Part shown: positions 12,001 through 18,000 of the stretch, one piece after another
Numbering within the stretch: position 1 is the stretch's first letter
Layout: each line of letters opens with the position of its first letter
Source of the DNA: Escherichia coli
GTDB taxonomy: Bacteria; Pseudomonadota; Gammaproteobacteria; Enterobacterales; Enterobacteriaceae
Length of the DNA stretch: 64,000 nucleotides
Reading direction: 5' to 3' (one strand)
Assembly: GCF_045037415.1 (NCBI RefSeq)
Contig: NZ_CP173438.1
Program-made: the position numbers

Positions 12001-15000
12001 CAGACCGGAATTCATACCGACTGGCGTGGCTATGCCATATTACCATTTGCGACAGAATATAGAGAAAATCGTGTCGCTCTTAACGCGAATTCCCTTGCAG
12101 ATAATGTTGAACTGGATGAAACCGTAGTCACTGTCATCCCAACTCACGGTGCTATTGCCAGAGCAACATTTAATGCACAAATCGGCGGGAAAGTATTAAT
12201 GACGTTGAAGTACGGTAATAAAAGCGTTCCATTCGGTGCAATTGTCACTCACGGAGAGAATAAAAATGGCAGCATTGTCGCGGAAAATGGTCAGGTTTAT
12301 CTGACTGGACTTCCACAGTCAGGGAAATTACAGGTTTCATGGGGCAATGATAAAAACTCAAACTGTATTGTCGATTACAAGCTTCCTGCAGTCTCTCCTG
12401 GAACCTTGCTGAACCAGCAGACAGCAATCTGTCGCTAAGGAACAATAGATTATGAAATACAATAACGTTATTTTCCTCGGTTTATGTCTGGGGTTAACCA
12501 CCTATTCTGCTTTATCCGCAGATAGCGTTATTAAAATTAGCGGGCGCGTTCTCGATTATGGCTGCACAGTCTCATCGGATTCGCTTAATTTTACCGTAGA
12601 TCTCCAAAAAAACAGTGCCAGACAATTTCCAACGACCGGTAGCACAAGTCCTGCCGTCCCTTTTCAGATTACGTTAAGTGAATGCAGCAAAGGGACAACG
12701 GGGGTGCGGGTTGCATTTAACGGTATTGAGGATGCAGAAAATAATACTCTGTTGAAACTGGATGAAGGAAGCAATACGGCCTCCGGTTTGGGTATAGAAA
12801 TACTGGACGGAAATATGCGTCCGGTGAAATTGAATGACCTTCATACCGGGATGCAGTGGATCCCATTGGTACCAGAACAGAACAATATTTTGCCTTACTC
12901 CGCTCGTTTGAAGTCAACTCAGAAGTCCGTCAATCCAGGACTGGTGAGCGCTTCGGCAACCTTTACCCTTGAATTTCAATAATCAGAGTCAGATATGAAA
13001 AGACTTCACAAGAGGTTCCTGTTAGCTACGTTTTGCACGTTATTTACAGCAACTCTCCAGGCCGCCGATGTCACTATCACTGTTAATGGTCGGGTAGTCG
13101 CTAAACCATGCACTATTCAAACCAAAGAAGCTAACGTTAATCTCGGGGATCTTTATACACGCAATCTGCAACAACCTGGTTCTGCATCTGGCTGGCACAA
13201 TATTACTTTGTCATTAACCGATTGTCCGATTGAAACAAGTGCAGTGACGGCAATCGTGACAGGTTCAACTGACAATACGGGTTATTACAAAAATGAAGGT
13301 ACTGCCGAAAATATTCAGATAGAGCTAAGGGATGACCAGGATGCGACGTTAAAAAATGGCGATAGCAAAACGGTTATTGTTGATGAGATCACTCGTAATG
13401 CACAGTTTCCACTTAAGGCAAGAGCTATCACGGTGAATGGAAACGCAAGCCAGGGAACGATCGAGGCGCTAATCAATGTGATCTATATCTGGCAATAACA
13501 TCAATTTGATTTTATTTGCCTCCTTTTTAAATCAATTTTTTAACCTTAGGATATATCATGGGTAAAACATTCAGTATAAAGGTCCTGTTCGGTATTTATC
13601 TTCTATTAATGGCAGGCAAAGTTTTTGCCTTTAGTTGTAATGTCGATGGCGGGTCAAGTATTGGAGCAGGTACAACCTCTGTTTATGTTAATCTCGATCC
13701 TGTAATACTACCGGGCCAGAATCTGGTTGTAGACTTGTCTCAGCATATAAGTTGCTGGAATGATTACGGCGGCTGGTACGACACTGATCATATAAACCTG
13801 GTACAAGGATCAGCTTTCGCAGGCTCCCTACAGTCATATAAAGGATCACTGTACTGGAATAATGTGACCTACCCCTTCCCGTTGACGACAAATACCAACG
13901 TATTGGATATTGGTGATAAGACACCGATGCCATTACCGTTAAAACTCTATATTACCCCAGTCGGAGCAGCCGGTGGAGTTGTCATAAAATCAGGGGAAGT
14001 TATTGCCCGTATTCATATGTATAAAATTGCCACGTTAGGAAGCGGAAATCCACGTAATTTTACGTGGAATATTATTTCAAATAACAGTGTTGTTATGCCA
14101 ACAGGCGGTTGCACCGTTGATAGTCGTAATGTCACCGTGAATCTCCCGGACTTTCCTGGAAGCGCAGAAATACCCCTTGGTGTATATTGCTCTAGCGAAC
14201 AAAAGCTCTCATTTTATCTTTCGGGTGCCACCACTGACAGTGCCCGACAAGTGTTTGCTAACACAGCACCAGATGCAACAAAAGCATCGGGCGTGGGTGT
14301 CTCTCTGATGCGTAATGGAAAAACACTGGCAACAGGAGAAAATGTCTCCCTGGGGACAGTAAATAAAAGCAAAGTACCTCTGGGTTTAAGCGCAACCTAT
14401 GGACAAACAGGAAATAAGGTTGCAGCCGGAGCCGTCCAGTCAGTCATTGGTGTCACTTTTATCTATGAATAATTGTGATTTTGACATTAGTCTATGCGCT
14501 CCATTCACGAAAATTGCGCGGATAATTATTTTGTGAAGGCTATTATCCTACACTTGTAAGAAAATCCGCGCACAATTGAAGCCAGAGTCTTATTTTTTAT
14601 ATTGAGAATTATGTTAATTTAAACCCTATGAGAGATGATGCTTAACTTATCGTATTTATACTACTCTATTATTTAACGATAATAGAGTAAAAATAGTAAG
14701 AGAGTAGTCCCCTACTCTTATATATCCATGTTGACGATAAACCCTATGTATATATTGTGCATCATCGCTATTACAAATCCTAATAATTCATTTCCACACA
14801 GGATAAGCAGATGAAGAAAAAAATTGAATCCTACCAGGGAGCTGCCGGTGGTTGGGGTGCTGTTAAATCCGTAGCGAATGCAGTACGTAAGCAGATGGAT
14901 ATACGCCAGGATGTTATTGCCATGTTTGACATGAATAAGCCAGAGGGCTTTGACTGTCCGGGATGTGCATGGCCAGATCCTAAGCACAGTGCGTCATTCG

Positions 15001-18000
15001 ACATTTGTGAAAACGGCGCAAAAGCAATCGCCTGGGAAGTCACGGATAAGCAGGTAAATGCCTCTTTCTTTGCTGAGAATACGGTTCAATCATTACTTAC
15101 CTGGGGAGATCACGAGCTTGAGGCTGCGGGACGTCTCACTCAGCCTTTGAAATATGATGACGTCAGCGACTGTTACAAGCCATTAAGCTGGCAACAAGCT
15201 TTCGACGAAATTGGCGCTCGCCTTCAAAGCTATAGTGATCCCAATCAGGTTGAATTCTATACTTCGGGGCGCACTTCCAATGAAGCTGCCTTTCTTTATC
15301 AGCTTTTTGCCCGTGAATACGGGAGCAATAACTTTCCCGACTGCTCCAACATGTGCCATGAACCGACCAGTGTGGGATTGGCAGCGAGTATCGGTGTGGG
15401 TAAAGGGACCGTGTTGCTGGAAGACTTTGAGAAATGCGATTTAGTCATTTGCATTGGGCATAACCCTGGTACAAACCACCCTCGCATGCTGACTTCGTTG
15501 CGCGCTTTAGTGAAACGGGGAGCGAAAATGATCGCTATCAACCCTCTACAGGAACGTGGCCTGGAGCGATTTACCGCACCGCAAAACCCGTTTGAAATGC
15601 TGACGAACTCTGAGACTCAGTTAGCCAGTGCCTACTATAACGTGCGCATTGGTGGCGATATGGCGTTGCTCAAGGGGATGATGCGCCTGTTAATTGAGCG
15701 CGATGATGCTGCAAGCGCCGCAGGTCGGCCCTCATTGCTGGATGACGAATTTATTCAAACGCATACCGTCGGCTTTGACGAGCTACGCCGTGACGTGCTC
15801 AATTCCGAGTGGAAAGATATCGAACGTATTTCTGGACTAAGTCAGACACAAATCGCCGAACTTGCTGATGCATATGCCGCTGCCGAACGAACCATTATCT
15901 GTTACGGAATGGGGATCACTCAGCACGAACATGGTACCCAGAACGTACAGCAACTGGTCAATCTGCTGTTGATGAAAGGTAACATTGGCAAGCCTGGTGC
16001 GGGTATCTGCCCACTACGAGGTCACTCTAATGTACAGGGCGACCGAACCGTCGGTATCACCGAGAAACCGTCTGCAGAGTTTCTGGCTCGCCTGGGTGAG
16101 CGCTATGGCTTCACCCCACCTCATGCACCTGGACATGCTGCAATAGCCAGCATGCAAGCTATATGTACGGGGCAAGCTCGAGCATTGATCTGCATGGGGG
16201 GCAACTTTGCACTGGCAATGCCAGATCGGGAAGCGAGCGCTGTACCGTTAACGCAATTAGATCTGGCGGTACACGTAGCCACTAAGCTTAACCGCTCTCA
16301 TCTGCTGACCGCACGGCATAGCTATATTCTGCCGGTTCTGGGACGTAGCGAGATTGACATGCAAAAAAGCGGTGCGCAGGCGGTAACCGTTGAGGATTCA
16401 ATGTCGATGGTTCATGCCTCGCGTGGTGTGTTAAAACCCGCCGGTGTAATGCTGAAATCAGAGTGTGCAGTGGTCGCGGGAATCGCGCAGGCAGCACTAC
16501 CCCAGAGCGTGGTAGCCTGGGAGTATCTGGTGGAAGATTATGATCGCATTCGCAATGACATTGAAGCTGTGCTGCCAGAGTTTGCCGACTATAACCAGCG
16601 CATCCGTCATCCTGGTGGTTTTCACCTGATAAACGCAGCTGCTGAAAGGCGCTGGATGACGCCGTCAGGTAAGGCTAATTTCATTACCAGCAAAGGGCTG
16701 TTAGAAGATCCTTCTTCAGCGTTTAACAGTAAGCTGGTCATGGCGACAGTACGCAGCCACGATCAGTACAACACGACGATTTATGGTATGGATGATCGCT
16801 ATCGAGGTGTATTCGGTCAACGAGATGTGGTCTTTATGAGTGCTAAACAAGCTAAAATTTGCCGTGTAAAAAACGGCGAAAGAGTTAATCTTATTGCACT
16901 CACGCCAGACGGTAAACGTAGCTCACGCCGCATGGATAGATTAAAAGTGGTCATTTACCCTATGGCTGACCGCTCACTGGTGACCTATTTCCCAGAATCG
17001 AATCACATGCTAACACTTGATAACCACGATCCATTAAGTGGCATTCCTGGCTATAAAAGTATTCCGGTTGAATTAGAACCATCAAATTAATTCTCCTCCT
17101 CATTTCTTCTGCTGTCATCCGCACAGCAGAAGAATTCCTCATTGACTATTATCGCGCAATTTGCTCACATGGATTAAATTAAACTACACACTATAAGATA
17201 TAAACCTCTGCCTACAGTTGTAAGAAACTCCGCTCAGTACTGAAGTGCCAGTCCTATTTCCTCTTTTATCCAGCCTGTTATATTAATCATACTGATTAAC
17301 GATTTTTAACGTTATCCGCTAAATAAACACATTTGAAATGCATGCGACCACAGTGAAAAACAAAATCACGCAAAGAGACAACTATAAAGAAATCATGTCT
17401 GTAATTGTGGTTGTCTTGTTACTGACACTTACGTTGATAGCCATTTTTTCGGCAATTGATCAGCTGGGCATTTCAGAAATGGGTCGCATGGCAAGAGATC
17501 TTACACATTTCATTATCAATAGTTTGCAAGACTGAAAATAAACAGCAAATTATACATGAAAAATGTTAAAAAAGTATCGATAAAAACTTTATTATTTTAA
17601 GGAGATAAAATGTCGCTCGTTTGTTCTGTTATATTTATTCATCATGCCTTCAACGCTAACATTTTAGATAAAGATTACGCCTTCTCTGACGGCGAGATCC
17701 TGATGGTAGATAACGCTGTTCGCACGCATTTTGAACCTTATGAGCGGCATTTCAAAGAAATCGGATTTAATGAAAATACCATTAAAAAATATCTACAATG
17801 CACTAACATCCAGACAGTGACGATGCCTGTTCCTGCGAAGTTTTTACGTGCTTCAAATGTACCGACTGGATTGCTTAATGAAATGATTGCTTATCTCAAC
17901 TCGGAAGAACGCAATCATCATAATTTTTCAGAGCTTTTGCTTTTTTCTTGCCTGTCTATTTTTGCCGCATGCAAAGGTTTCATTACACTATTAACTAACG

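Follow-up and report, generated by a model that had tools for sequence, protein, structure and literature searches.

The regulatory DNA of the acid-resistance genes ydeP and safA-ydeO was analyzed in a 64,000-nucleotide stretch of the Escherichia coli contig NZ_CP173438.1 (the window, that is the whole stretch of DNA analyzed), in which a first-pass annotation had read two near-identical palindromes as binding sites (boxes) of the regulator EvgA. The two 18-mers, TCCTACACTTGTAAGAAA (14546-14563) and GCCTACAGTTGTAAGAAA (17210-17227), were found on the plus strand at the coordinates that had been given for them, and are identical at 16/18 positions, the differences being T/G at base 1 and C/G at base 8. 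The symmetric 18-bp unit begins 1 base to the left of each noted 18-mer, at 14545-14562 and 17209-17226, and it is this unit that is called the box below. Open reading frames (ORFs) and domain matches bore out the naming of the downstream genes as ydeP and safA-ydeO. The features of the locus, in window positions, are as follows.

13558-14472, plus strand: ydeQ.
14545-14562, plus strand: predicted EvgA box of the ydeP promoter (PydeP), ATCCTACA-CT-TGTAAGAA, with its centre at 14553.5, which is -74.5 relative to a leader start at 14628.
14811-17090, plus strand: ydeP, an acid-resistance gene of the molybdopterin oxidoreductase family, intact, 759 amino acids (aa).
17209-17226, plus strand: predicted EvgA box of the safA-ydeO promoter (PsafA), TGCCTACA-GT-TGTAAGAA.
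17338-17535, plus strand: safA, encoding the connector protein to PhoQ, 65 aa (Pfam SafA, E 4e-47).
17610-18371, plus strand: ydeO, encoding an AraC-family activator of gadE with an AraC-type helix-turn-helix (HTH), 253 aa.

Both palindromes are imperfect, with 6/8 self-complementary arm positions in each box. Box orientation is identical in the two promoters, and the gap from box end to start codon is 248 bp for ydeP and 111 bp for safA. When the window was shuffled, 0.13 matches to the noted pattern (≤3 mismatches) were expected, vs. 2 observed. By a simple binomial estimate, the probability of a second copy at ≥16/18 arising by chance in 64 kb, both strands, is about 3e-3. As nucleic acid structure the boxes were unremarkable: the minimum free energy (MFE) was -0.2 and -1.3 kcal/mol, no better than in shuffles, a 2-nt loop cannot close, and Rfam models gave no match in the region (E up to 1 in 13000-19000). 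An intrinsic terminator or structural hairpin was considered and rejected, with MFE at shuffle level and no terminator-like site at either box.

The EvgA consensus was taken to be TTCYTACA-NN-TGTARGAA, an 8-2-8 inverted repeat, reportedly described by Masuda & Church 2003, and each window box departs from it by 1 mismatch. Matches at ≤3 mismatches were sought in 127 kb, comprising the 64-kb window and four K-12 loci. Besides the two window boxes these were the two K-12 orthologues, only two intragenic matches, both weak, and five further sites, which lie upstream of emrK/evgA, frc, yfdX (two) and yegR. At this threshold the matches in the K-12 evgAS locus were confined to the emrK-evgA intergenic region, the region upstream of frc (a perfect consensus match) and the region upstream of yfdX (two), and the site upstream of yegR has 1 mismatch. 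The K-12 ydeP-ydeO locus was matched upstream of ydeP and of safA, and once inside ydeO (3 mismatches). A box-like TTCTTACGCATGAAAGAA (2 mismatches) was also seen inside the K-12 mdtE coding region (L017 7887-7904). The region upstream of K-12 gadE held no box at ≤3 mismatches, despite statements that gadE is a direct target of activation by EvgA.

Two analyses were made independently of this consensus. With no motif supplied, the best 18-mer shared among the emrK-evgA, frc, yfdX and yegR intergenic regions was the same box (score 44). A weight matrix was then trained only on the K-12 emrK/evgA, frc, yfdX and yegR sites, with ydeP and safA excluded, and applied to both strands of the 64-kb window. 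The ydeP box ranked 1st (23.6 bits) and the safA box 2nd (21.8 bits), both within the range of the training sites themselves (20.9-26.7 bits), and the third-best position reached 9.7 bits (window mean -24.7, sd 8.0), leaving a gap of about 12 bits below the boxes.

The orthologous K-12 boxes (L002 8731-8748 for ydeP and L002 6072-6089 for safA, equivalent to K-12 positions 1586730-1586747 and 1584071-1584088) align with those of the window column for column. They precede the same genes, in the same orientation, at the same distance from the start codon and at orthologous positions, so that only allelic differences separate them. The same 18-bp 8-2-8 inverted repeat forms the K-12 EvgA boxes of ydeP, b1500/safA-ydeO, emrKY-evgAS, yfdX, frc and yegR, which reportedly go back to the work of Masuda and Church in 2003, Itou and co-workers in 2009 and Kato and co-workers in 2000. 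In the literature, ydeP is placed under direct EvgA regulation (PMC8174306, citing Itou 2009), the safA-ydeO promoter is described as directly bound by EvgA (PMC9496106, citing Itou 2009) and as regulated by phosphorylated EvgA (PMC5706723), and an EvgA site was reported at all known directly regulated genes and at no others among those induced by constitutive EvgS (PMC4283999). A full-text search on the motif strings and on EvgA box or binding data found no paper printing the consensus or footprints. Agreement with the consensus, K-12 orthology, recurrence in the regulon, matrix ranks and the literature thus all bear out the placement of EvgA boxes upstream of ydeP and safA-ydeO, and on sequence grounds the two palindromes are, with high confidence, predicted to be the primary, high-affinity EvgA-dimer sites of these promoters. 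The boxes are already known biology and add nothing new to the biology of EvgA.

Conservation was assessed in 12 aligned sequences, taken from the window, from K-12, from nine diverse strains and from a single divergent lineage of Escherichia (L012, Escherichia strain SCPM-O-B-8794, 84.5% identity over ydeP-ydeO). These intergenic regions are polymorphic in E. coli, with an identity to the window in most genomes of 90-95% for PydeP and 95-99% for PsafA. Variable columns were distributed as follows.

Half-site cores (box positions 3-8 and 11-18): 1/14 in PydeP, 0/14 in PsafA.
2-bp spacer: 2/2 in PydeP, 1/2 in PsafA.
60 bp upstream of the box: 33/60 in PydeP, 34/60 in PsafA.

Over both promoters, 1/28 core columns, 3/4 spacer columns and 67/120 columns of the upstream flank were variable. 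The spacer alleles were CT, CC or TC at ydeP and GT or GC at safA. Relative to K-12, the ydeP box of the window differs at position 2 (T vs. G) and in the spacer (CT vs. CC), and the safA box in the spacer (GT vs. GC). Between strains the box varies only in the spacer and the outermost bases, and fixed half-sites around a free spacer are the signature expected of a site for a symmetric protein dimer. In the divergent lineage L012 the two boxes are retained (ATCCTACGCCTGTAAGAA and CGCCTACAGTTGTAAGAA), as are the extended -10 and the +23..+34 block described below; upstream of its ydeP promoter, the sequence bears no relation to ydeQ. A pattern scan with TACANNTGTAAGAAANTCCGC over 100,044 species representatives returned four loci only, belonging to one divergent Escherichia lineage (both promoters), two metagenome-assembled genome (MAG) contigs and one archaeal MAG. 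The archaeal match is a chance one. The two contigs, from a Candidatus Nanosynbacter MAG (L014 2092-2109 and 4751-4768, with K-12-like E. coli ydeP and safA promoters) and from the uncultured bacterium UMGS1713 (L015 428-445, with K-12-like E. coli promoter sequence), can almost certainly be put down to E. coli DNA contaminating the species-representative assemblies. No box-bearing outgroup beyond Escherichia was thus found in the species-representative scan, in agreement with a published account in which evgAS and safA-ydeO occur in E. coli alone (PMC5706723).

The resemblance between the two promoters extends past the boxes. An ungapped alignment of PydeP and PsafA anchored on the box gave a common stretch of about 85-105 bp in exact register, with the following identities.

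40 bp preceding the box: 9/40.
Box: 16/18.
67 bp after the box: 39/67.
25 bp beyond those 67 bp: 11/25.

Over both strands of the window, this 67-bp segment had no better ungapped match to anything other than itself than the 39/67 (background mean 16.9, sd 3.6, z about 6). The elements that follow the boxes in this module are listed below.

14563-14650, plus strand: rest of the ydeP promoter module, in register with PsafA.
14563-14572, plus strand: conserved block +1..+10 of ydeP, with CA at +9/+10.
14585-14596, plus strand: +23..+34 block of ydeP, GAGTCTTATTTT, 0/12 variable columns.
14612-14620, plus strand: putative extended -10 of ydeP, TGtTAATTT.
17227-17314, plus strand: rest of the safA-ydeO promoter module.
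17249-17260, plus strand: +23..+34 block of safA, CAGTCCTATTTC, 1/12 variable columns.
17276-17284, plus strand: putative extended -10 of safA, TGtTATATT.

In the 12 Escherichia sequences the next segment after the +23..+34 block had 7/15 and 10/15 variable columns, vs. 0/12 and 1/12 in the block itself. The box centre and the first base of the -10 hexamer are 61.5 bp apart in both promoters, and no -35 element was recognisable in either PydeP or PsafA. In the work of Gorelik et al. 2024 the ydeP 5' leader begins with ATGAGAGATG (PMC11210196, Table S3, T7 template primer), which maps to window position 14628 and is consistent with the extended -10; this start puts the ydeP box at -83 to -66, centred at -74.5. 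From the register with ydeP, the safA start is predicted at 17291/17292. Just past the predicted safA start, TGATTAACGATTTTTAA (17293-17309) bears a weak likeness to a PhoP box (3 mismatches), and PhoP has been reported to repress safA. As PsafA held only 3-mismatch matches, and 187 equally good ones occur in the window, a PhoP box here was rejected as not significant.

Six promoters (ydeP, safA, emrK, frc, yfdX proximal and yegR) were anchored on the box and compared in gene orientation. Five downstream columns were invariant in 6/6 promoters, namely CA at +9/+10, TC at +26/+27 and T at +31. The null distribution was built by random register shifts of four independent groups, with ydeP and safA locked to each other and likewise frc and yfdX, and under it 0.5 columns were invariant on average and 4 at most, five being reached in 0/20,000 trials. 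The TCYKAT at +26..+31 lies over the -35 region and is similar to TCYTA, the core of the left half-site, from whose matching letters it is spaced by 42 bp, or four helical turns downstream. Read from the aligned sequences, these conserved positions match a half-site weakly (4-5/8), and an automated scan for half-sites of ≥6/8 at the same positions found none. The in-register positions would be compatible with extra EvgA molecules or with a fixed RNA polymerase contact, and are not proof of either.

BvgA of Bordetella is the closest characterised homologue of EvgA, and the two are not known to cross-regulate. The BvgA sites of fha and ptx are inverted heptads with TTTCCTA-like half-sites, and the primary site lies far upstream of the -35, as here. 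Conserved in-register positions down to about -35 in the EvgA promoters would fit BvgA-like downstream regulator molecules, but unlike in BvgA promoters the secondary EvgA sites here are candidates only, with a half-site match of 4-5/8. Pattern comparison across the six promoters led us to formulate, as a tentative proposal that we regard as unlikely in its entirety, a rigid EvgA-promoter architecture with the box centre at about -74, CA at +9/+10, TCYKAT at +26..+31 and an extended -10 beginning at +53, on which EvgA might assemble in the BvgA manner down to RNA polymerase, with PydeP and PsafA as two copies of one module. The module duplication and the in-register architecture may represent a modest residual novelty, perhaps already published.

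EvgA consists of a receiver domain and a GerE/LuxR HTH; its own solved structures are 5F64, 8ZWN and 3F6C, and among other proteins of solved structure NarL is closest to it. The best-supported mechanism builds on features observed directly, which are the sequence and specificity of the boxes, their K-12 orthology, their recurrence in the regulon, their conservation pattern and the fixed distance to the -10. EvgA binding and activation at the ydeP and safA-ydeO promoters come from the K-12 literature. EvgS would phosphorylate EvgA, and an EvgA dimer would then occupy each box, about 74 bp upstream of the start, and activate a weak sigma-70 promoter with an extended -10 and no recognisable -35. 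We infer that the dimer at -74.5 would probably reach RNA polymerase through the alpha C-terminal domains, through further EvgA molecules downstream, as with BvgA, or both. Candidates for such contacts are the in-register positions conserved after the box, +9/+10 and +26..+31. The outputs would be YdeP, SafA, which would activate PhoQ, and YdeO, which would activate gadE and hence gadBC indirectly; the steps from YdeO to gadE and from GadE to gadBC have been reported (PMC11210196, PMC4283999, PMC5706723).

Of the alternatives, the one that survives best leaves EvgA at -74.5 and changes how it acts: activation would come mostly from the displacement of H-NS or a different nucleoid silencer, not from contact with RNA polymerase. 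An unusually distant upstream box, an A+T content of 58-69% in the DNA that follows it, and the fact that acid-resistance loci are known H-NS targets would all suit anti-silencing; the identical box to -10 distance and the positions invariant across six promoters argue instead for a fixed stereospecific geometry, which simple anti-silencing would not need, and we consider this account improbable.

That the main user of the palindromes is another LuxR/NarL-family regulator (e.g. RcsB, GadE or NarL/NarP) or a CopY/BlaI-type repressor, instead of EvgA, appears very unlikely. The half-site letters TCCTA/TAAGA do recall RcsAB boxes, and NarL 7-2-7 sites are, like the EvgA box, inverted repeats with a 2-bp spacer bound by a dimer with a GerE/LuxR-type HTH. 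The half-site arrangement is nevertheless unlike that of RcsAB and NarL 7-2-7 sites, and NarL differs from EvgA in half-site (TACYYMT), regulon and signal. The core TACA-NN-TGTA is also the published CopY/BlaI operator core, and the central 10 bp of CopY/BlaI/MecI operators (TACANNTGTA) are identical to those of the EvgA boxes. These proteins are winged-helix repressors of Gram-positive bacteria whose operator does not include the invariant outer positions of the EvgA boxes (CC..., ...AGAA), and repressors of the CopY/BlaI type are not known to be part of E. coli K-12; the likeness is coincidental. Against any such regulator, the motif is specifically associated with members of the EvgA regulon, the evgA promoter included.

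Slightly less probable again is a relic of a duplicated promoter segment, in which the palindrome was carried along and is no protein site. The extended match described above speaks for it, with an ungapped alignment of about 85-105 bp that is strong after the box and weak before it, and an alignment longer than 18 bp makes it plausible that a promoter module was copied, through shared ancestry or gene conversion. The box, though, has been kept at 16/18, vs. 58% for the rest of the module, its spacer varies while its half-sites are fixed, and it recurs at frc, yfdX, emrK and yegR, between flanks that are otherwise unrelated. Duplication is compatible with function, and probably accounts for the extended similarity and not for the box itself. 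Chance matches in AT-rich intergenic DNA, devoid of function, are effectively refuted by conservation and matrix ranks, since, common as short palindromes are (two matches to the loose pattern, ≤3 mismatches, were reached in 1/100 window shuffles), the boxes rank 1 and 2 against an independent matrix with a 12-bit gap, keep their half-sites invariant while the flanks vary, and share their motif with five other EvgA-regulated transcription units.

Several points weigh against the reading of the palindromes as primary EvgA sites with the geometry given above. The de novo motif and the weight matrix are independent of the consensus used first, and the de novo score of 44 exceeded those of ten shuffles (38-42) only by a narrow margin. 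The ydeP start rests on the primer design of one paper (PMC11210196), and the safA start is a prediction only. A sigma-70-like TTGAAG-16-TATATT lies at 14576-14603, just 3' of the ydeP box, and its start would be at about 14610, placing the box near -56 if this were the promoter used. The pair, its -10 part in particular, is not retained in PsafA, and it misfits the leader start above. It may serve ydeP as a further promoter, either independent of EvgA or used as an alternative, and is not preferred. Finally, evgAS lies outside the 64-kb window, and its presence in this strain is presumed. Since evgAS is carried by 5405/5426 complete E. coli genomes, in line with its reported near universality in the species (PMC5706723), it is probably present here as well.

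Downstream of the promoter, the ydeP transcript would begin with the following element.

14628-14810, plus strand: ydeP 5' leader, 183 nt, predicted to be structured as RNA.

The MFE of the leader was -42.4 kcal/mol, vs. -27.1 +/- 3.4 in shuffles (z -4.5). The predicted fold has an invariant long-range closing stem (GAGAUGAUGC / GCAUCAUC) around two hairpins, and the final hairpin covers the Shine-Dalgarno AGGA. The structure was retained in 8 distinct Escherichia sequences, with one compensatory pair only, and the leader had no match in Rfam. CsrA has been reported not to bind the ydeP leader (PMC11210196).

For the wider circuit, the distal genes were located with the TIGR01788/TIGR00910 equivalogs for gadB and gadC.

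22949-24349, plus strand: gadB.
24505-26040, plus strand: gadC, which with gadB is the distal output named in the first-pass annotation.

Between ydeO and gadB lie ydeN, ydeM and a pqqL remnant, all on the plus strand. It had been claimed that the EvgA circuit feeds the adjacent gadBC via ydeO. YdeO does reach gadBC, but only through GadE, and gadBC is not directly adjacent, being 4.6 kb from ydeO. This distance, vs. about 11 kb in K-12, arises because yddA, yddB and most of the K-12 pqqL are absent at 21670-22950 (compared with L002, NC_000913 b1494-b1496), the pqqL remnant being a C-terminal M16 peptidase ORF at 21733-22587. On the other side of the locus, ydeS-ydeR-ydeQ are preceded by an intact fimbrial usher (9787-12438, 883 aa), whereas K-12 has only the 1149-nt ydeT fragment, and the chaperone-usher operon looks complete in this strain.

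The 5 kb at 13500-18500 are 100% identical to several complete genomes, including SK1144, and both intergenic regions match strains labelled ST-131 and O25b:H4-ST131 at 100% identity, a match that by established knowledge indicates phylogroup B2. In some otherwise identical genomes (20409, WGS1363 and MSB1_4E) ydeP is split by IS1, with an IS1 transposase annotated between the pieces. The EvgS of most tested B2 strains (Nissle 1917, CFT073, UTI89 and MP1, with E2348/69 as the exception) was found to be unresponsive to mild acid, and the B2 network below EvgA worked when K-12 evgAS or a constitutive EvgS was provided (Roggiani et al. 2017, PMC5706723). Because B2 EvgS is mostly unresponsive to mild acid, the boxes of an ST131-like strain point to a circuit that is wired and not necessarily acid-inducible. 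The earlier description of an intact EvgA circuit held for the cis elements and the three genes, with evgAS presumably elsewhere in the genome.

That two true regulator sites were recoverable from raw sequence by a reader without tools is of methodological interest, and the in-register positions could guide a mechanistic study of activation from -74.5. For the organism, an ST131-like strain, the EvgA-YdeO-GadE acid-resistance cascade was found intact in its cis-regulatory part, and in B2 strains the reported limiting element of the circuit is the EvgS allele, not the boxes (PMC5706723).

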